Source of the DNA: Bacillota bacterium
GTDB lineage: Bacteria; Bacillota; Clostridia; Tissierellales; Tissierellaceae
Length of the DNA stretch: 64,000 bases
Assembly: GCA_051744365.1 (NCBI GenBank)
Contig: JBNJCX010000005.1
Location: forward strand, 2,217-66,216
Direction of reading: 5' to 3'
The notes beneath the pieces are model-generated. The model did no database searches, was not told where the DNA came from, and worked only from the letters and a program-made list of their open reading frames with translations. A program made the translations under genes and the position numbers. The stretch's first letter is position 1; every line of letters starts with the position of its first letter. This document shows, piece by piece, positions 6,117 through 52,651 of this stretch.

Positions 6117-6416
6117 ATGGAGCAACTTCAAGCGTTTATTCTTCCAATTGGACTTTTGGTAATATTTTATGTATTTGCCATTAGACCGCAGAAGAAAAAG
6201 GAAAAGGAAATCAAGGAAATGAGAAGCAGCCTTAGGGTAGGAGACGAGGTAGTAACAATCGGCGGCGTTTATGGAAAGATAGTAAAGGCCAAGGATGACG
6301 TACTTACTTTAGAGGTAGGTTCAGCAAAGACAAAGCTTGATGTAACAAGATGGGCTGTTGGTTCTGTTATTAACAGCAGCGGAAGAAACAACAGGACTGA
6401 TGAAGCAGCTGAATAA
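6117..6416 (+). CDS. yajC: Preprotein translocase subunit YajC
   Basis: Single TM segment followed by IRPQKKKEKE...LRVGDEVVTIGGVYGKIV, the YajC signature. Conserved position after tgt. Confidence 0.9.
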   Translation: MEQLQAFILPIGLLVIFYVFAIRPQKKKEKEIKEMRSSLRVGDEVVTIGGVYGKIVKAKDDVLTLEVGSAKTKLDVTRWAVGSVINSSGRNNRTDEAAE

Positions 6417-6486: not shown

Positions 6487-6548
6487 GCTTTTTACATATG
6501 ATATAATCAATCCATTAAAACCTGTTGACCAGGGATAGGAGGAAGGAA

Positions 6549-6689
6549 ATGAAATACATAAAGACATTGACAAAGAGCAGACTTAAGGATACTCTTTCCT
6601 ATGCCGGTTGTGGTGAGTGTCAGACATCTTGCCAATCAGCATGTAAGACATCCTGTACTGTTGGAAATCAGAAGTGCGAAAATAAGTAG
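6549..6689 (+). CDS. scfA: SCIFF six-cysteine ranthipeptide precursor (46 aa; too short for the ORF track)
   Basis: Translates to MKYIKTLTKSRLKDTLSYAGCGECQTSCQSACKTSCTVGNQKCENK. This has six Cys and the GCGECQTSCQSACKTSCTV core characteristic of SCIFF. An SD (aggaggaagg) lies upstream. Confidence 0.93.
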   Translation: MKYIKTLTKSRLKDTLSYAGCGECQTSCQSACKTSCTVGNQKCENK

Positions 6690-6754: not shown

Positions 6755-8113
6755 TTGAAACAGACCTTGATACATAAGTTTTACTTGAATGAAAAGTATA
6801 TGGCACTTGATGTCAACAGCGGGTCAGTACATGTTGTTGATGAGCTTGCATACGACATCCTGGACTATCATGGAGCCAAAAGCACAGAGGAAATTGTAGC
6901 AGCATTAAAGGACAAGTATGATGAAACCAATATAGTTGAAGCCTGCGGAGAGATAGATTATCTTGTGGAAAACGGAATGCTGTTCTCCGATGCTGAGGAT
7001 ATTGAACACCTTAAATACAATGAAGACAATGTTGTAAAGGCAATGTGTCTGCATGTGGCACATGATTGCAACCTTAAGTGTGATTACTGCTTTGCATCCC
7101 AGGGTAACTTCAAGGGCGAAAGGTCAATGATGAACCTTGAGACTGGAAAGAAAGCACTTTTATATCTTGCACAGAATTCCGGTAATAGGAAAAATCTGGA
7201 GGTTGACTTCTTTGGTGGTGAACCATTGATGAATTTTCAGATTGTAAAGGATCTTGTAGCCTACGGAAGAAGCATTGAAAAGGAATACAAAAAGAATTTC
7301 AGGTTTACTATCACTACCAACGGAGTACTCCTTGATGATGATAAAATTGATTATATAAACGAGAATATGGATAACGTTGTTTTAAGCCTCGATGGCCGAA
7401 AAGAAGTAAATGACGCTATGAGACTTACTGTCAGTGGTGATGGAAGCTATGATGTAATTCTTCCCAATATAAAGAAAATGGTGAAATCAAGAGGTGACAA
7501 GGATTATTACGTCAGGGGAACCTTTACCAGTAAAAATCTTGATTTTGGAAAGGATGCAATAAATTTCCATAATGAAGGCTTTAAAAAAATCTCCATTGAG
7601 CCAGTTGTGGCACCTGAAGAGATGGATTATGCCATTAGGGAAGAGCATATTGATGCAATATTAAAGGAGTATGAAAACTTCTCAAAAGAGTACATCAGGC
7701 TGACTGCTGAGGATAAGGAATTTATGTTCTTTCACTTTATGATTGATCTCGAGCAGGGACCATGCGTGGTAAAGAGAGCCGTGGGCTGTGGAGCAGGAAG
7801 CGAGTATCTGGCTGTAACCCCGGAAGGCGAGCTGTATCCCTGTCACCAGTTTGTGGGTGAGAAGGAATTCCTGTTGGGAACATTGGAGACGGGAGTAGAG
7901 AATACTGAGTTAAGGGACAAGTTTAAGGTTGCCAATGTATATAACAAGGAAGAGTGTAGGAATTGCTGGGCAAGATTCTATTGCAGTGGAGGTTGTCATG
8001 CAAATGCACACTATTCCCATGGTGATATAATGAAGCCCTACGAAATCGGATGTGAGATGGAAAAGAAGCGCATAGAATGCGCACTTTCAGTTCTTGCCAA
8101 TCAAGAGGGTTAG
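6755..8113 (+). CDS. scfB: SCIFF radical SAM/SPASM maturase
   Basis: Radical SAM CNLKCDYC, and SPASM Cys clusters CGAGSEYLAVTPEGELYPCHQF and CRNCWARFYCSGGCHANA. Lies directly downstream of scfA. TTG start 8 nt after AGGAGG. Confidence 0.92.
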   Translation: MKQTLIHKFYLNEKYMALDVNSGSVHVVDELAYDILDYHGAKSTEEIVAALKDKYDETNIVEACGEIDYLVENGMLFSDAEDIEHLKYNEDNVVKAMCLHVAHDCNLKCDYCFASQGNFKGERSMMNLETGKKALLYLAQNSGNRKNLEVDFFGGEPLMNFQIVKDLVAYGRSIEKEYKKNFRFTITTNGVLLDDDKIDYINENMDNVVLSLDGRKEVNDAMRLTVSGDGSYDVILPNIKKMVKSRGDKDYYVRGTFTSKNLDFGKDAINFHNEGFKKISIEPVVAPEEMDYAIREEHIDAILKEYENFSKEYIRLTAEDKEFMFFHFMIDLEQGPCVVKRAVGCGAGSEYLAVTPEGELYPCHQFVGEKEFLLGTLETGVENTELRDKFKVANVYNKEECRNCWARFYCSGGCHANAHYSHGDIMKPYEIGCEMEKKRIECALSVLANQEG

Positions 8114-10710: not shown

Positions 10711-12489
10711 TTGGAAAAGTGGTTTATTAAAAACAAACTTGGGGATGTAACCAGGACTGCAGTGGAGAATAAAATTTCAGAGCCTCTGGCAAAACTTCTT
10801 ATAAATCGAGGATTGACCAGTACGAAAGATATTGACGAATATCTGGAACCCAATATAGACAGACTTCATAATCCTTTGCTATTGCACGATATGGATGCAG
10901 CTGGACGATTGATAAGGGGGAAAATCCAGGAAGGAAAGAAAATCCTTATTGTAGGTGATTTTGACGTGGATGGGATAATGTCCACATATATACTCTACAG
11001 TGTCCTGAAGAACCTGGGGGCAAAGGTTGAATATACGATTCCGGACAGAATTCAGGATGGATATGGCATAAACAATCAGATTGTACTGAATGCAAAGGCA
11101 TCGGCTGTGGATACAATAATAACATGTGACAATGGAATAGCGGCCTTCGAGGCCATAAAGACAGGCAAGAATATGGGAATGACTATGATTATAACCGACC
11201 ACCACGATATACCTCATGGTGAGAAGAATGGAAAGTCTGTAAGCATAATGCCTGAGGCTGACTGTATAATAAATCCCAAGAAAAGTATTTGCGAGTATCC
11301 GGAAAAGAACCTATGTGGAGCAGGTGTAGCTTTTAAACTTGCAGAGCATTTGGCAGCAGGCTATAAGATAAAAATAGATTCAAAGCCGTTGCTGGAGATG
11401 GTTGCCATAGCTACAATATGTGATGTAGTAGACTTGGTAGGTGAAAACCGAATTTTTGTCACTGAAGGGTTGAAAAGACTGAACAACACCTCGAATATGG
11501 GATTGAAGGCATTATTCAGTGAATCGGGGCTGGAGGACAAGAAAATCACCGTGTACCATGTGGGATTTGTCATCGGACCTAGTCTAAATGCTTCCGGAAG
11601 ACTTGACAGTGCTCTTCTCGGCCTGCAGCTTCTGTTGTCTGAAAATAAATCAGAAGCAACTGAAATCGCCATGAAGCTTAGAAAACTCAATGAACAAAGG
11701 AAAAATCTAACTGAAAAAGGAACTACGGAAATTGATGCAATGGTAGAAAGAGAATATAAGACACACAAGGTGCTTGTGGCTTATTCCCCTGAAATACACG
11801 AAAGTGTTGCAGGAATCATTGCAGGCAGGATAAAAGATAAGTATAATAGACCTACGATAGTTCTTACCAGGGGTAGAGAAGGTGTAAAAGGCTCTGGCAG
11901 GTCCATAGAGAACTATCATATATTTGAAGAATTATCAAAATGCAAGGCTCTACTTGGAAAATTTGGTGGCCATCCAATGGCAGCAGGCCTTTCCCTTGAG
12001 GAGCAGAATATTGGTAAATTGAGAGAATGTCTGAATCGCAATACAATTTTAAAGAATGAAGACCTTATTCGAAGGGTATATATAGATATGGTGATTTCAC
12101 TGGATAGGATAAGCTACGGATTTATTGAGGATATCTCAAGGTTGGAACCATTCGGCAAAGGTAATCCAAAGCCTGCCTTTGGACTCAAGGGTCTTAATCT
12201 TTCAAAGGCTTCTGTTCTTGGGGCCAAAAGAAATGTTGTAAAATTAGCTTTCAGCAATTCAGCGCCCGACCAGTCAGAAGCAATTATATTCTGTGATGGT
12301 GACAAGTGGCTGGAAGAGGTTGAGTATAACTACGGTTCGAAGGAAAAGCAGAAGCTTTTGTCAGGAATAGCAAACAACATCATGCTGGATGTAATCTATT
12401 ATCCTTCTGTAAACGAATACATGGGAAGATCTTCCATACAAATTGTTATAAATAACTATCGATTCGATAGATCCAGACCAAGAGGGTGA
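10711..12489 (+). CDS. recJ: Single-stranded-DNA-specific exonuclease RecJ
   Basis: DHH-family motifs (VGDFDVDGI, ITDHHD, GGHPMAAG). The start is uncertain: TTG 10711 follows ggagtga, and the track start is GTG 10702. Confidence 0.92.
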   Translation: MEKWFIKNKLGDVTRTAVENKISEPLAKLLINRGLTSTKDIDEYLEPNIDRLHNPLLLHDMDAAGRLIRGKIQEGKKILIVGDFDVDGIMSTYILYSVLKNLGAKVEYTIPDRIQDGYGINNQIVLNAKASAVDTIITCDNGIAAFEAIKTGKNMGMTMIITDHHDIPHGEKNGKSVSIMPEADCIINPKKSICEYPEKNLCGAGVAFKLAEHLAAGYKIKIDSKPLLEMVAIATICDVVDLVGENRIFVTEGLKRLNNTSNMGLKALFSESGLEDKKITVYHVGFVIGPSLNASGRLDSALLGLQLLLSENKSEATEIAMKLRKLNEQRKNLTEKGTTEIDAMVEREYKTHKVLVAYSPEIHESVAGIIAGRIKDKYNRPTIVLTRGREGVKGSGRSIENYHIFEELSKCKALLGKFGGHPMAAGLSLEEQNIGKLRECLNRNTILKNEDLIRRVYIDMVISLDRISYGFIEDISRLEPFGKGNPKPAFGLKGLNLSKASVLGAKRNVVKLAFSNSAPDQSEAIIFCDGDKWLEEVEYNYGSKEKQKLLSGIANNIMLDVIYYPSVNEYMGRSSIQIVINNYRFDRSRPRG

Positions 12490-15764: not shown

Positions 15765-17269
15765 TAAAAATGGTTAAAATTCTATGTGAGGACGTTAACA
15801 TAAAAACACATGACCCTTACGAACTGGTAAGGGCTTTTTATAGCGAGGAAGAAGTGCAGGTTGTGGATGACAGAACATTTATAACTGAAGAAAAAGATGA
15901 AGACGCTGTACGGATATCCATGGATAATAATATTTACAGAGTCTCACTTCTAAGGGGAAATGAAATCGTAGATACTGAAGAGATTCCATATTCGAAACTT
16001 GATTTTTACAGAAATGAGCGAGCATCAAGAAACAATACAGTAAAACATCTAATATATAAAGTTCTTGATAGGAATCTAAAAACAAATCTTCCTTGGGGTA
16101 TACTAACTGGAACTCGACCAGTGAAGATTGCAAAGATTCTAATGGATAAGGGACTTGATATTGATGAAACCCTAGATACTCTAACAGAAGCATATCTACT
16201 GAGACCTGACAAGGCAAGACTTATAATTCAGGTTTCTATTGGACAGAAGAAAATTCTGGAATCAATAGAAAAAAACAGCTACAGCATATACATTGGGATA
16301 CCCTTCTGCCCGACAAGATGTTTTTATTGTTCATTTCCAACATTGAATGCAGATAAATATGGAAGCTCTATGGAAAGGTATGTGGAAAACCTGATCCATG
16401 AGCTGGAAGACAATGCCAGTATGATGGAGAAGTGGGCAATAAATACTATATACATTGGTGGAGGAACTCCTACATCACTACCTGTTGAACTAATGGAAAG
16501 ACTGCTTAAATATATAGATAAAAAGTTTATAGGAGTAAATGAGCTTACAGTTGAGGCAGGTCGGCCGGACACCATAAACAGCGAGTATCTTGAGCTTTTC
16601 AAGCGGTATAATGTCGACAGAATAAGCATTAATCCCCAGACTATGAACGATGATACGTTAAAGATAATAGGTCGAAGGCATTCATCAGAAGATATTCTGA
16701 CCACTTATAAATTGAGCAAGGATATCGGAATTGAGACTGTCAATATGGATTTGATTGTAGGTCTTCCTAGTGAAGACAGGAAGGATATTGAAGATACGTT
16801 AAAGAAACTTGAACCCTTGCAGCCTGACAACTTGACTGTGCATACTCTTGCAGTTAAGAAGGGCTCTGATTTTATTGATGATCGAAAGAATTATTCCATG
16901 GCCTCTGCTGAAGAAATTCAGGAGATGCTAAGGCTTACAGCTAAATATGCAGAAAAGAACAATTTGATCCCCTATTACCTGTATAGACAAAAACAGATAA
17001 TGGGCAATTTCGAAAACATTGGGTACAGCAGACCTGATAATCCATGTCTATATAATATTTCCATAATGGAGGAGAAGGAAACAATCATAGGCATCGGGAT
17101 GGGTTCTACCACCAAGCTATACAACAAGTTGGAAGATAGTATAGAAACAATAGCAAATTTCAGGAATCTTAAGGAATACATGGACAGGTTGTCAGAACTT
17201 GAATTGAGAAAAAGGCAGAAAATCAAGGGAATTGAGGATTCATGGAGCCAGATTCAGCTTGACACTTAG
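15761..17269 (+). CDS. HemN/HemZ-like radical SAM protein (coproporphyrinogen dehydrogenase family)
   Basis: GIPFCPTRCFYCSF radical SAM motif. GTG start overlaps the upstream stop. Confidence 0.82.
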   Translation: MIKMVKILCEDVNIKTHDPYELVRAFYSEEEVQVVDDRTFITEEKDEDAVRISMDNNIYRVSLLRGNEIVDTEEIPYSKLDFYRNERASRNNTVKHLIYKVLDRNLKTNLPWGILTGTRPVKIAKILMDKGLDIDETLDTLTEAYLLRPDKARLIIQVSIGQKKILESIEKNSYSIYIGIPFCPTRCFYCSFPTLNADKYGSSMERYVENLIHELEDNASMMEKWAINTIYIGGGTPTSLPVELMERLLKYIDKKFIGVNELTVEAGRPDTINSEYLELFKRYNVDRISINPQTMNDDTLKIIGRRHSSEDILTTYKLSKDIGIETVNMDLIVGLPSEDRKDIEDTLKKLEPLQPDNLTVHTLAVKKGSDFIDDRKNYSMASAEEIQEMLRLTAKYAEKNNLIPYYLYRQKQIMGNFENIGYSRPDNPCLYNISIMEEKETIIGIGMGSTTKLYNKLEDSIETIANFRNLKEYMDRLSELELRKRQKIKGIEDSWSQIQLDT

Positions 17270-17287
17270 GCAGTATTATTTTATAAT
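17259..17287 (+). promoter_or_regulatory. Consensus sigma-A promoter for the aspS leader
   Basis: TTGACA (17259-17264, inside the end of the upstream CDS), a 17-nt spacer, then TATAAT (17282-17287). Confidence 0.7.
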
Positions 17288-17293
17288 TATGTA

Positions 17294-17522
17294 AATTAAA
17301 TAAACAGACTTTGATAAGGAAGAGTATCAGAAATTATTGGGGCAAGAGAGCTGAAGATGGTGGGAATTCAGCACCAATATTCTGTGAAGACACCTTTGAG
17401 TCAGCAGTATATCTGCTCGTGAAATACGTTATAAATTGAGTGAGGAAAACCTAATTAGGGTGGCACCGCGAGATAAGCCTCTCGTCCCTGAAAATCAGAG
17501 ATGAGAGGTTTTATATTTTTTT
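17294..17522 (+). promoter_or_regulatory. T-box leader (Asp specifier) with terminator
   Basis: T-box sequence aattagGGTGGcACCGCG (17453-17470) and an AGAGA stem-I element. The candidate specifier is GAC-A at 17389-17392. Terminator: cctctcgtc (17478-17486) pairs with gatgagagg (17500-17508), followed by a T-run. Confidence 0.9.
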
Positions 17523-19321: not shown

Positions 19322-20027
19322 TAGATTTGCAAGAACAAGCATTCTCCTTGGAGAGAATGCAATGAAAATATTGAAGGAGTCTACCGTGGCGGTCTTCGGA
19401 ATTGGAGGTGTGGGCTCCTATGCCGTGGAGGCTCTTGCCAGAACAGGAATAGGCAAGCTTGTCATAGTGGACTATGATATAATAGATATATCAAATATAA
19501 ATCGACAGGTACATGCTTTGACAAGTACAATCGGACAATTCAAGGTCGATGCAATGAAAGAAAGACTTTTGGACATTAATCCTGAGCTGAAGGTTGTTGC
19601 AGTCAACGATAAGTATAACAGTGAAACAAGGGAAAAACTGTTATCAAATGAGTATGACTATATTGTAGATGCCATTGATATGGTTTCTTCAAAGTTGGAT
19701 TTGGTTACATCAGCATCCTCAATGGGTATACCAATAATAAGCTCAATGGGAGCAGGAAACAAATTAAATCCTACCGGTTTTATGGTTAAGGACATTAACA
19801 GCACAAAAGTCTGTCCTTTGGCTAGAGTTATGCGCCAGGAGTTGAGAAAACGCGGAATAGAAAACCTGAAGGTAGTATACTCAGAGGAAGAGCCATTGAA
19901 GATAAATCTTGGGGAAGGCGAACGGCGGAAAGCCATACCGGGAAGCATTGGATTCGTACCACCGGTAGTTGGCTTGATTATTGCGTCGGAAGTAATAAAG
20001 GATTTAACATCACAGGAGGAGAGATAG
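19314..20027 (+). CDS. tcdA: ThiF/MoeB-family tRNA threonylcarbamoyladenosine dehydratase
   Basis: VFGIGGVGSY nucleotide-binding loop and NRQ motif. The size fits TcdA/CsdL-type E1-like enzymes. Confidence 0.75.
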   Translation: MNDRFARTSILLGENAMKILKESTVAVFGIGGVGSYAVEALARTGIGKLVIVDYDIIDISNINRQVHALTSTIGQFKVDAMKERLLDINPELKVVAVNDKYNSETREKLLSNEYDYIVDAIDMVSSKLDLVTSASSMGIPIISSMGAGNKLNPTGFMVKDINSTKVCPLARVMRQELRKRGIENLKVVYSEEEPLKINLGEGERRKAIPGSIGFVPPVVGLIIASEVIKDLTSQEER

Positions 20028-20028
20028 C

Positions 20029-20451
20029 GTGGATCAAATAGGATTTGTGATAAAGAAAGTTGGTGACCAGAAGGTACAACTGGAAGTTAAAAGACCATCA
20101 GGATGAGGCAGCTGTAGTTCCTGCGCAAGTTCTTGCGAAGTTAAGCCTCACTATGTTACAGTTAACAACAATATCGATGCGAAGCCTGGTGATTTTGTGG
20201 AGCTTCAGGCTATTCAAAAAAATATTATGAAGTATGTGACAATAATATATATGATTCCTTTTGCTTTCTTAATATTGGGAATCTTTGTCGGAAACAGTAT
20301 GTTCAAAGGAATGGAGACCGCCAGCCACGAGCTTCTGATTTTTGGTATGGGAATTGTATTCCTGGCAATATCATTTGTGATTGTGAGAATTATTGACAAA
20401 GTATTTGCAAAGAAAGATGAGAATATAATCGTTATGACAAGAAAGCTTTAA
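20029..20451 (+). CDS. RseC/MucC-family small membrane protein with a single in-frame TGA (candidate selenocysteine at codon 26)
   Basis: GTG 20029 lies 9 nt after AGGAGG (20014-20019). The frame reads MDQIGFVIKKVGDQKVQLEVKRPSG-TGA(20104-20106)-GSCSSCASSCEVKPHYVTV...PGDFVELQAIQ and runs straight into the tracked 84-aa ORF (20197..20451), which carries 2 TM helices. The track's GTG 20197 has no SD. Confidence 0.6.
20105..20149 (+). promoter_or_regulatory. SECIS-like hairpin immediately 3' of the in-frame TGA
   Basis: GAGGC (20105-20109) pairs with GCCTC (20145-20149), and AGCT (20110-13) pairs with AGTT (20139-42). The upper stem is CGCAA (20124-28) with TTGCG (20133-37), capped by the loop GTTC (20129-32). 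Confidence 0.45.
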
Positions 20452-20463
20452 GGAGGGGTGGTT

Positions 20464-20718
20464 TTGGCAGAGAAGGATGCAATAATCGTACGATTAAGAA
20501 GAGTAGAAGGTCAGATAAAGGGTATACAAAAAATGGTGGATGAGGACAAGTTCTGTGGAGATATATTGATTCAGATATCAGCTGCAAGAAGTGCCCTGAA
20601 TAATGTTGGAGGGCTCATTCTTGAGAATTATATGAAGAATTGTCTATTGGAGGCACCGGATGGTTCTGAAGAGGAACTTGACAAGCTGATTGAGATTATG
20701 CTTAAATACACCAAATAA
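20464..20718 (+). CDS. CsoR/RcnR/CstR-family metal- or thiol-sensing transcriptional repressor (DUF156)
   Basis: RLRRVEGQIKGIQKMVDEDKFCGDILIQISAARSAL is the family signature. TTG 20464 is correctly spaced from AGGAGG (20451-56), whereas the track's GTG 20458 is only 1 nt from it. Confidence 0.85.
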   Translation: MAEKDAIIVRLRRVEGQIKGIQKMVDEDKFCGDILIQISAARSALNNVGGLILENYMKNCLLEAPDGSEEELDKLIEIMLKYTK

Positions 20719-28015: not shown

Positions 28016-28092
28016 TGGTCGGAGTGATAGGATTTGAACCTACGGCCCCTAGTCCCCCAGACTAGTGCGCTACCAAGCTGCGCCACACCCCG
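28016..28092 (-). tRNA. tRNA-Pro (anticodon GGG), CCA encoded
   Basis: The reverse complement is CGGGGTG-TG-GCGC-AGCTTGGTA-GCGC-A-CTAGT-CTGGGGG-ACTAG-GGGCC-GTAGG-TTCAAAT-CCTAT-CACTCCG-A-CCA. It folds as a full cloverleaf with T33, anticodon GGG at positions 34-36 and G37. Confidence 0.9.
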
Positions 28093-28580: not shown

Positions 28581-29840
28581 ATGATAAGATATCAGGGAGA
28601 CATAAAAAGAAAGTTGATTCTTTTCATAGGATTTATTGTCCTGGTGCTCCTTGCATTGAATATCCTTCCAAGATTTTTTAGTGATGATGACCTCCTCGTT
28701 CTGCCGGAGGAATTCGAGTATCTGGTAGAAATACCAGCGAAAGGTATTCTGGTAAGAGATGAGGAGTTGTATTATTCAGAAGTAGATGGCGACATATATA
28801 AAGTTGCCGCTGAAGGAGAAAGAGTAAGGGTTGGACAAATTGTAGTAGACATACTTCTACAGCAGGACACGACAAACCTCAAAAGTGAGCTTAACAGCAT
28901 TGAGAATATGATTGGTTTCTATAATGAAATTCAGACTGAAGAAGATACTGATGCCACTGTCAGCCTCAATGGAGTAGAGGTATTGGTTTCAAAACTTCAG
29001 AGTCAAATTGCTGCAAGAGACTATCAAGGTGTACATGATTCAAGGGAAGTCCTCCTATTACAGTCCACTACCTTCAATGAGCTTTCTCAGACATATATTT
29101 CAGGTGAAATCACAATGGAATCTCTTCTTGAAAGACGTGAAAGCCTCTACCAACAGATTTCAAAATATGACAAGAAAATCTACTCTAGAAATTCAGGCCT
29201 GGTATCATATAATATAGATGGATGGGAAGAATCTTTGCGTCCGACAAGCCTGAATGAAATAAGTGTCGATATTCTAGATATAGACAAGGAAATAAACGGT
29301 CAGAAAAAAGAAGCGGGAAGTAATCCTGTGTTTAAAATTATTGATGACTATCAGTGGCTTGTTATAGTGAAGGTTGATGGGGAGCTTTACTCAAAATTTG
29401 AAATTGACGACCGACTGGAAATTTCAATTTCCAGTAATGAAGAGCTGCTGGTATCGGCTAAGCTTCCTGTAATTGATACAATTGAAGAAGACAATACTAG
29501 ACTTCTTGTTTTGGAAGGAACCAAATATATTGAAAAACTATATGATAAAAGAAAAGTCGACATAAGCATTGTAACTGTTAAAGAGAACACTCTTAGGATT
29601 CCAGAAAGATCCCTGGTGGAGAGAGATGGTATCAATGGAGTTTTGGTCAAGGAATTTTATGGGGTTGTCACCTTCAGACCAGTTGAAGTAATTGCAAACG
29701 ATGATAGATATGCCTATGTTTCCAAGGGTGACAGCAATGGTTATATAAAATCAGGTGAAGAGTCAGTTAGAACCATCTCAATATTCAGTGAAATAATAAT
29801 TGAGCCTGAGTCTGCCCAGGTTGGTGATATACTAAAGTGA
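28581..29840 (+). CDS. HlyD-like membrane-anchored protein (periplasmic-adaptor-like architecture)
   Basis: N-terminal TM segment, a long coiled-coil middle section and a beta-rich C-terminus. The call rests on architecture only. Confidence 0.5.
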   Translation: MIRYQGDIKRKLILFIGFIVLVLLALNILPRFFSDDDLLVLPEEFEYLVEIPAKGILVRDEELYYSEVDGDIYKVAAEGERVRVGQIVVDILLQQDTTNLKSELNSIENMIGFYNEIQTEEDTDATVSLNGVEVLVSKLQSQIAARDYQGVHDSREVLLLQSTTFNELSQTYISGEITMESLLERRESLYQQISKYDKKIYSRNSGLVSYNIDGWEESLRPTSLNEISVDILDIDKEINGQKKEAGSNPVFKIIDDYQWLVIVKVDGELYSKFEIDDRLEISISSNEELLVSAKLPVIDTIEEDNTRLLVLEGTKYIEKLYDKRKVDISIVTVKENTLRIPERSLVERDGINGVLVKEFYGVVTFRPVEVIANDDRYAYVSKGDSNGYIKSGEESVRTISIFSEIIIEPESAQVGDILK

Positions 29841-51459: not shown

Positions 51460-52005
51460 ATGGAACAAAAAAGAAGTAAGGTACTGATGTTGACTGAAGG
51501 GGGCATGATGATAGCTTTATCAGCATTATTAAGCTACATCAGGATTTACCAGGCACCAAACGGAGGAAGCGTTACTGCTGGAAGTATGATACCCATAATG
51601 ATATTTGCCATAAGATGGGGGCTTTTACCTGGAGTTGCTGTAGGCGCAACCTATGGAATGCTGGATTTTATTTTGAAACCTTATTTTGTCCATCCACTAC
51701 AGCTGTTGCTTGATTATCCTCTTGCATTCGGGTCACTGGGTCTGGCTGGGATAGCATATTATCTCACTAAGAAAAAGAAAAGCAGTGGATACGGACCAGT
51801 TATTCTAGGGGTTACAATAGCAATTACAGGTAGGTTGGTTGCCCATGTGCTTTCAGGTGTTGTATTTTTTGCGGAATATGCAGGAGATCAGAATCCCTGG
51901 ATTTATTCAATAATATATAACGCTACCTATCTTGTGCCGGAATTGATAATTTCTCTAGTGGTGCTTGTGATAGTATGGAAACCTATACAAAAATTCATTA
52001 AATAG
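51460..52005 (+). CDS. thiT: ECF transporter S component for thiamine (ThiT)
   Basis: Six-TM protein with the family motifs GGSVTAGSMIPIM and LLDYPLAFG, directly downstream of the TPP riboswitch. Confidence 0.88.
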   Translation: MEQKRSKVLMLTEGGMMIALSALLSYIRIYQAPNGGSVTAGSMIPIMIFAIRWGLLPGVAVGATYGMLDFILKPYFVHPLQLLLDYPLAFGSLGLAGIAYYLTKKKKSSGYGPVILGVTIAITGRLVAHVLSGVVFFAEYAGDQNPWIYSIIYNATYLVPELIISLVVLVIVWKPIQKFIK

Positions 52006-52012
52006 GGATGAT

Positions 52013-52651
52013 ATGATGAAAGGCTTGATTTCGGCGGGAGGAATCGGACTGGAGAAAAATCGTCTATCTTCAATTTGCGAGGATATGGATATCATAGTTG
52101 CAGCGGACAGCGGTGTTAAGCATCTGCTGGAATGTGAATGTAGAATAGATTATCTTGTAGGAGATATGGATTCAATAGATATGAGCATTCTTGATAGAAA
52201 AATTGGCGTAGACACAGAAATAGTAAGATACCCAGTTGAAAAGGACAAGACGGACACTGAGCTTGCAGCAGATCTTTTAATTGAAAAAGGGTGCAATCAA
52301 ATCCTGATAGTTGGGGCCACAGGTAGCAGGATGGACCATGCCTTGGCAAATATCCAGTTGTTGAGGTCACTCCATCTGGAAGGGGTATCTGCAATAATTA
52401 TTGATAATTACAATGAAATATCATATCTTCCACCTGAGATTAGACTTAAGAAGAAATCAGGATATTTTTATTCTATACTTCCCATATGTCAAGAGGGGGT
52501 TAAAGTCACACTGGGAGGCTTTCACTATCCTTTGACAAATACTATTATAACCTATGGATCCAGTCTGGGAATAAGCAATTATCTGGAAGGAGAAGAAGGT
52601 ATTATTATCAGACACGAAGGAGAAGGATTTCTTATAAAGTCAAAAGACTAG
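52013..52651 (+). CDS. thiN: Thiamine pyrophosphokinase
   Basis: VAADSG...YLVGDMDSI and GATGSRMDH motifs. Confidence 0.9.
   Translation: MMKGLISAGGIGLEKNRLSSICEDMDIIVAADSGVKHLLECECRIDYLVGDMDSIDMSILDRKIGVDTEIVRYPVEKDKTDTELAADLLIEKGCNQILIVGATGSRMDHALANIQLLRSLHLEGVSAIIIDNYNEISYLPPEIRLKKKSGYFYSILPICQEGVKVTLGGFHYPLTNTIITYGSSLGISNYLEGEEGIIIRHEGEGFLIKSKD

Follow-up and report, generated by a model that had tools for sequence, protein, structure and literature searches.

The window analyzed here is a 64,000-nucleotide stretch of contig JBNJCX010000005.1 from a Bacillota bacterium of the family Tissierellaceae. Positions 20029–20451 of its + strand hold a complete gene of the RseC/MucC family, with 140 codons, a GTG start at 20029–31 and a TAA stop at 20449–51, and its codon 26 is an in-frame TGA (20104–20106) that very probably encodes selenocysteine (Sec). 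An earlier note, made from the DNA letters alone, had put this gene forward as a candidate selenoprotein and regarded an 84-residue open reading frame (ORF; 20197–20451) as only the C-terminal part of it. The candidacy is supported by an exchange of TGA and cysteine codons among orthologs, by selection on both sides of the TGA and by an independent assembly.

Gene structure and protein family

The start codon lies 9 nt after a Shine-Dalgarno sequence, AGGAGG (20014–20019, + strand), and 1 nt after the stop of the upstream gene, and it opens the same frame as GTG 20197, where the 84-residue ORF begins; the earlier note had placed all of these correctly. All orthologs likewise have AGGAGG or GGAGG at similar spacing ahead of an ATG, GTG or TTG start. 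Translation confirmed that the TGA is the sole in-frame stop between GTG 20029 and the TAA at 20449–51. Within 20107–20196 there is no in-frame ATG, GTG or TTG, the first start past the TGA being codon 57, and no Shine-Dalgarno sequence precedes GTG 20197, as had been noted before.

With Cys placed at codon 26, the read-through product matches the Pfam family PF04246 (RseC_MucC; gathering score 24.4) with 99.2 bits over profile positions 2–129 of 130, whereas the 84-residue ORF alone reaches 47 bits, which bears out its description as the C-terminal part of a larger gene. The same family is annotated (precomputed) on all homologs retrieved. Against NF008115, the NCBIfam equivalog model for the SoxR-reducing-system protein RseC, the window protein scores 25.4 bits, below the cut-off of 184. 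Judged by these profile scores, it is an RseC/MucC family member and not an equivalog of Escherichia coli RseC.

Its structure was taken from the AlphaFold model (mean pLDDT 78) of a 91%-identical Cys ortholog, P0001. That model has a small beta N-domain, a C-terminal strand that packs on the N-domain and completes it, and a low-confidence Cys loop. Codons 1–25, 5′ of the TGA (20029–20103, + strand), would provide the first two beta-strands of the N-domain (predicted strands 2–10 and 15–21), and two transmembrane (TM) helices are predicted at residues ~66–91 and ~100–128, encoded on the + strand at 20224–20301 and 20326–20412. The full-length Pfam match and the model together agree with the layout proposed earlier, a beta N-domain with a Cys cluster followed by two TM helices. 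By analogy with E. coli RseC, the protein would have an N-in/C-in membrane topology with a cytoplasmic N-domain. A fold search against the PDB gave no significant resemblance, with weak OB-fold-like similarities at best (E 0.065).

The codons for Cys29, Cys32 and Cys36 (20113–20136, + strand) make, together with the proposed Sec26, the pattern U-x2-C-x2-C-x3-C, which has the spacing of the classical ferredoxin motif. C29 and C32, in a C-S-S-C-A-S core, align with C26 and C29 of E. coli RseC, and C36 is aligned as Cys in 112/151 rows. The earlier note had spoken of a UxxC redox motif. The full U-x2-C-x2-C-x3-C pattern is a better description than an isolated UxxC pair, since in E. coli RseC the corresponding cysteines bind an iron–sulfur (Fe-S) cluster.

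TGA is an ordinary stop codon in this DNA, as had been pointed out: it terminates 10 of the 41 window ORFs of at least 200 aa, and it ends recJ at 12487–89 and another ORF at 29838–40. Decoding of TGA by genetic code 4/25 is ruled out by those 10 long ORFs. Scanning the 64-kb window in all six frames revealed no further credible TGA-interrupted genes.

Exchange of TGA and cysteine codons among orthologs

A protein search returned full-length 140-residue homologs, of which some have Cys and others Trp at codon 26, and many N-truncated calls of 79–99 residues. In the DNA behind the Trp calls and the truncated calls, codon 26 is always TGA and the 140-codon gene is otherwise intact. There are 16 distinct TGA-type genes, belonging to three lineages with identity down to 43%, and none has another stop or a frameshift. 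Among species-representative genomes, TGA is found in seven Gudongella genomes, and TGT in a Soehngenia metagenome-assembled genome (MAG), one uncultured Firmicute and two Tissierella genomes. The two further lineages with TGA at the same column are those of loci L053 and L054 (49% and 43% identical), which were found via N-truncated representatives in an exhaustive profile search.

The earlier note had set a comparison of orthologs at codon 26 beforehand, and its outcome favors the selenoprotein reading. The codon is Cys or TGA in orthologs and nothing else, the nearest relatives having TGT, and it is TGT or TGC in all homologs other than the 16. Of the 150 best representatives of the family, 148 cover the column and all 148 have Cys there; C29 and C32 are likewise invariant. 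Exclusive alternation of TGA and TGY at a conserved Cys is a recognized signature of Sec/Cys pairs. In a neighbor-joining tree of the 140-codon clade, each of the four TGT genes adjoins a TGA sister, and therefore at least four single-base Sec/Cys switches have taken place. As these switches fall among near-identical genes, they constitute a natural experiment on the benefit of selenium in an Fe-S-type site.

The genus labels of the records look inconsistent in one place: the genes of L001 (JAGXFX010000021.1, TGT) and L003 (NZ_JBMEMN010000006.1, TGA) are 93.6% identical in nucleotides, and the L001 MAG is labeled Soehngenia sp., while L003 is Gudongella sp. DL1XJH-153. A metagenome scan was also made with a pattern that required '...SGC', which could return only Cys-type loci; these served as controls and not for a Sec/Cys ratio. 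One candidate, L052 (ENA ERZ27252335 k141_367023, a 751-nt contig, at ~30–170), was rejected as a Sec form: it is Cys-type, and an in-frame TAA right after the Cys cluster (…CGRCVGC*VKK…) marks it as a pseudogene or an assembly error.

Public records (NCBI, JGI/IMG, ENA, Logan) carry the TGA genes either truncated or mistranslated with Trp, and the fragments labeled 'RseC' are 66–98 residues long. The full-length gene is 20029–20451, and databases hold only a truncated fragment of it. In the Logan-derived calls P0003, P0004 and P0008–P0013 (loci L012, L046, L047 and L050), TGA is translated as Trp, apparently by a code-4 gene model. A 'W at invariant Cys column' in automatic gene calls would be a cheap screen for missed selenoproteins.

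Selection on both sides of the TGA

Pseudogenes and sequencing or assembly errors most often show up as a lone stop in a short gene, and either could be suspected at 20104–06. An independent assembly from the same species (MAG GCA_964462365.1; 5 mismatches in 3,230 nt), however, carries the identical gene including the TGA, and sequencing error, a possibility that the earlier note had wished to see checked, is thereby excluded. The 16 distinct orthologs with TGA and no other lesion argue further against decay, as does purifying selection on both sides of the codon. Estimates were made from 14 full-length TGA-type genes, in which synonymous sites are near saturation (proportion of synonymous differences, pS, 0.66–0.80). 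Codons 1–25 show a proportion of nonsynonymous differences (pN) of 0.19 against a pS of 0.70, or a dN/dS of ~0.11, which indicates purifying selection, and pN is 0.07 in codons 27–41. We regard a pseudogene or an error as refuted, with a negligible chance of being right.

The same estimates bear on the possibility that translation begins at an internal start and yields just the C-terminal membrane half, the upstream part being a relic that is not translated or encoding a peptide of 25 residues by itself. Products of 66–98 aa are indeed what gene callers and public records annotate. Codons 1–25 and 27–56 are nevertheless under strong purifying selection, with synonymous sites near saturation, and the strong Shine-Dalgarno sequence and the start are conserved at codon 1, whereas the called internal position varies between orthologs (79, 84, 97 or 98 aa) and GTG 20197 has no Shine-Dalgarno sequence. 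The invariant Cys cluster sits between the TGA and codon 57, and as this stretch has no start codon of its own, it can be translated only by read-through from GTG 20029. E. coli RseC, moreover, depends on its Cys-rich N-domain for both function and interaction. The combination of purifying selection on both sides with a Cys cluster lacking its own start is thus incompatible with a pseudogene, the 'internal start' annotation cannot be upheld, and production of the membrane half alone is accordingly very improbable.

A putative SECIS hairpin

Just 3′ of the TGA, at 20121–20140 on the + strand, lies a putative bacterial selenocysteine insertion sequence (SECIS) hairpin. It has a core stem of 20124–28/20133–37 (CGCAA/UUGCG), a loop GUUC (20129–32) and, beyond a G.A mismatch, lower pairs 20121–22/20139–40. 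The loop, which presents G26-U27, begins 22 nt past the UGA. In the 14 TGA-type sequences, 91% of cells are paired in register, as opposed to 28–58% when the partners are slid. In 62 codon columns the amino acid is invariant and has degenerate codons. Only five of these columns keep one and the same codon throughout the 13 sequences compared, and two of the five are the adjacent six-fold Ser codons 34–35 (AGU UCU), which form the loop and the closing pair. Each of the six six-fold Leu columns shows 3–5 codons.

The two further TGA lineages have hairpins of different sequence, whose distance from the UGA in nucleotides is unchanged, with stems GCUGU/GCAGC (L053) and GCUGC/GCAGC (L054) and loops AGUA and GGUA. 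Since the protein motif has an additional residue in both, the hairpin has moved one codon relative to the protein, with G26-U27 still in the loop. Overall, an in-register hairpin of at least 5 bp that presents G26-U27 occurs in 12 of 16 TGA genes, with three different stem sequences, and in 4 of 23 Cys genes (Fisher p ~7e-4, phylogeny uncorrected).

The SECIS of E. coli fdhF is a minimal 17-nt stem-loop 11 nt after the UGA, whose loop nucleotides G23 and U24 contact SelB. Like it, the window hairpin is a short stem-loop within the coding sequence just 3′ of the UGA, with G-U in the apical loop at a fixed distance (here G26-U27). It differs in that its loop lies a codon farther from the UGA, that there is no evident bulged U, and that the stem, of 5 bp plus 2 below the mismatch, is weaker in one subclade; SelB binding is putative. 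A long-range UGAGGC/GCCUCA pairing that appears in the minimum-free-energy fold was considered as well and rejected: the Pro third position facing the A of the UGA can be any base (CCU, CCC, CCG and CCA all occur), and most of the pairing sets Gly codons (GGN) against Pro codons (CCN).

Weighing the selenocysteine reading

Several observations count against selenocysteine at codon 26, most of them through the hairpin. Changes in the hairpin within the main clade are all one-sided C-to-U substitutions that give G.U, with zero compensatory pairs, and RNAalifold keeps only 3 hairpin pairs. Its stability is only 1–2 standard deviations above that of shuffles (29-nt segments, z −1 to −1.9), and the region around the UGA has no significant thermodynamic signal (z −0.8 to +1.3). 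The subclade of L012, L046, L047 and L050 keeps the TGA and an intact gene with a degraded stem (nt +18 to +37 after the UGA), which has a U.U mismatch, two G.U pairs and z ~0; the loop AGUUCU is unchanged. Close Cys-type sisters keep the same hairpin, which is therefore not exclusive to TGA genes, and two of the four hairpin-bearing Cys genes are immediate sisters of TGA genes. Beyond the hairpin, selA, selB, selD and tRNA-Sec were found neither in the 64-kb window nor in the fetched loci, which are small regions, so that their absence there says little. The hairpin is likely, but not proven, to be a SECIS element.

The literature places Sec use close by. C. ultunense, another member of the Tissierellaceae, has selA, selB, selD and glycine/betaine reductase selenoproteins (PMC5924567), and Tissierella creatinophila has the selenoprotein GrdB (Haft preprint). 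Papers on Gudongella and Soehngenia contain no mention of selenium, and the literature backs Sec use in the present genome at the family level only.

Read-through of the UGA might also do without selenocysteine: near-cognate or suppressor decoding could insert Trp or Cys, for example, or the codon could act as a leaky regulatory stop. Such decoding would fit with sel genes being seen neither in the window nor in the fetched loci, with the weak hairpin of one subclade and with the absence of covariation within the main clade. It does not account for a position that is an invariant Cys (148/148), at which Trp would destroy the cluster, or for the exclusive alternation of TGA and TGY there. Hairpins with a G-U loop at a SECIS-like distance in three lineages, the use of Sec by Tissierellaceae relatives, and the termination of 10 of 41 long window ORFs by TGA also speak against it, and we consider read-through of this kind quite unlikely.

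We therefore prefer selenocysteine at codon 26, a reading that we hold with considerable confidence on comparative sequence grounds. The ribosome would initiate at GTG 20029, and at UGA 20104, by analogy with the bacterial Sec system, SelB with Sec-tRNA(Sec) would be recruited by the hairpin at 20121–20140 with G26-U27 in its apical loop. After Sec insertion, translation would run on to the TAA ending at 20451 and yield a 140-residue inner-membrane protein. In this product, the C-terminal strand would close a small beta-domain on the cytoplasmic side, which would bear U26-x2-C29-x2-C32-x3-C36 and be followed by a two-helix membrane hairpin.

Likely function and partner repressor

Among the nearest characterized systems is E. 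coli RseC (b2570), which belongs to the SoxR-reducing system with RsxABCDGE, shares PF04246 and is 27% identical by BLASTP (E 2e-7). The two proteins are laid out alike: the beta N-domain is Cys-rich and cytoplasmic, two TM helices follow, and the chain ends in the cytoplasm. They have the C-S-S-C-A-S core in common, and the membrane half also aligns. E. coli RseC has both termini in the cytoplasm, and its C26, C29 and C35 reconstitute an O2-sensitive [4Fe-4S]-type cluster; mutating two of the three conserved Cys abolishes function, and its partners are RsxB and RsxD (PMC11729352). The E. coli protein differs in having Cys and no Sec, with the pattern C-x5-C-x2-C-x5-C in place of U-x2-C-x2-C-x3-C, and its first Cys (C20) is not conserved and can be dispensed with, while the first position of the window pattern is invariant. 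The genes are also set differently, E. coli rseC in an rpoE-rseABC operon and the window gene in aspS-tcdA-rseC-csoR with no rsx/rnf or rpoE nearby.

A second RseC-family protein from a Firmicute, that of Clostridium ljungdahlii (PMC9124969), is likewise small and membrane-bound and has a Cys cluster at its N-terminus, and is likened to the window protein at the family level and not by alignment. It is linked to rnfCDGEAB, is needed for autotrophy and is a proposed rnf regulator; no Sec form of it has been reported. Unlike its gene, the window gene is not beside rnf and is instead paired with a gene for a CsoR-family repressor. The biochemical role of RseC is debated, between SoxR reduction, Rnf regulation and thiamine-related phenotypes. 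The constant pairing with a two-Cys CsoR-family repressor suggests a concrete role that could be tested.

This CsoR/RcnR/FrmR-family repressor (PF02583, 97 bits) is encoded on the + strand at 20464–20718, with its start at TTG 20464 or GTG 20458. A CsoR-family gene lies 10–50 nt downstream of the rseC-like gene in every locus with flanking sequence (L001–L054), in Sec and Cys types alike. Two Cys of the repressor are invariant, and where CsoR has its Cu(I)-ligand His it carries Tyr, or His in a few distant members; this is a 'C-Y-C' signature that suggests a thiol-based sensor and not a canonical copper sensor. Upstream lies a ThiF-family (tcdA-like) gene (PF00899; 19314–20027, + strand), whose TAG stop (20025–27) is 1 nt ahead of the rseC-like start and which is the upstream neighbor in most loci.

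A likely operon promoter and T-box leader (17259–17492, + strand) stand ahead of aspS-tcdA-rseC-csoR: TTGACA-17-TATAAT at 17259–87, a 12/12 match to the sigma-70 consensus, and a T-box at 17302–492 (Rfam, 109 bits). aspS, tcdA, the rseC-like gene and the repressor gene overlap or are 1–12 nt apart, and there is no + strand terminator before glyA. From this arrangement we infer that aspS-tcdA-rseC-csoR is co-transcribed, and the selenoprotein gene may thus be under tRNA-sensing control. No rsx/rnf, SoxR or rpoE-rseAB genes occur in the window or in the orthologous loci.

By analogy with E. coli RseC, Sec26 is most likely a ligand of an Fe-S centre on the cytoplasmic membrane face or a redox-active residue beside it. 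Telling against a firmer statement, such binding is known only for E. coli N70; for the window protein it is inferred from the spacing of the motif and from no homolog other than this 27%-identical one. Sec/Cys pairs normally mark a chemically active residue, and the exchange seen here therefore singles out the first cluster cysteine as a key residue of RseC. It is a matter of speculation that the protein transfers electrons to or from the CsoR-family regulator or a partner complex. A fuller proposal would have Sec26 directly ligate a [4Fe-4S]-type cluster (Se-Fe) and the protein act as a dedicated redox partner that resets the two-Cys CsoR-family repressor, as RseC/Rsx does for SoxR, with Sec/Cys switching tuning oxygen or redox sensitivity in aerotolerant anaerobes; taken jointly, these elements make up a rather doubtful conjecture.

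Relation to known selenoproteins

The proposed mechanism is the familiar Sec system of bacteria, and there are precedents for Sec in metal or Fe-S motifs. In NF005503 (an Fe-S cluster domain with UxxC), the HesB-like proteins, the CopZ-family 2Fe-2S proteins and HgcB (PMC13188914 Table 1), Sec replaces a Cys of a cluster or metal motif, as it would in the window protein. Cys homologs predominate in these families and a hairpin follows the UGA, as here, while the protein families differ. A 'UGSC-containing protein' (e.g., ABI76733.1) has the same local motif, U-G-S-C-x-x-C; it is soluble, has ~170 residues and, unlike the window protein, has no TM helices. Homology to that family was rejected, as the match ends at the 10-residue motif.

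The earlier note had left it open whether Sec-containing RseC proteins are already catalogued, and in the sources searched they are not. RseC, MucC, SoxR and PF04246 are absent from a 2026 review that tabulates >110 prokaryotic selenoprotein families (PMC13188914), from Haft's 2022 preprint, from the main text of the BSepDB paper, from deep-Sep's main text and its table of families reported before, and from the supplements of Peng et al. (2016). NCBIfam has no dedicated model for a Sec-RseC, and literature searches on Sec-RseC returned nothing relevant, the matches being dominated by organoselenium 'RSeC' chemistry. RseC/MucC is thus apparently an uncatalogued selenoprotein family. It is also a widespread one (6,508 clusters at 50% identity), and would join the proteins with natural Sec forms.

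Other features of the window

The gene content of the window is all housekeeping. It includes ruvCAB, queA, tgt, the SCIFF system, secDF, recJ, relA, aspS and glyA, along with der, priA, fmt, pknB, recG, ackA, plsX and others. A yajC-like ORF is found at 6117–6416. The SCIFF precursor (6525–6689), of ~46 residues with six cysteines (…GCGECQTSCQSACKTSCTVGNQKCENK), lies directly upstream of its radical SAM/SPASM maturase at 6755–8113 (TIGR03974, 678 bits). A lone tRNA-Pro(GGG) gene occupies 28016–28092 on the minus strand amid + strand housekeeping genes, and is in the same place in a related contig (L013, 15840–15916). Finally, the segment 51277–52651 holds a thiamine pyrophosphate (TPP) riboswitch (Rfam, 67.5 bits) followed by genes for a ThiT/YuaJ thiamine transporter (51460–52005) and a thiamine pyrophosphokinase (52013–52651).

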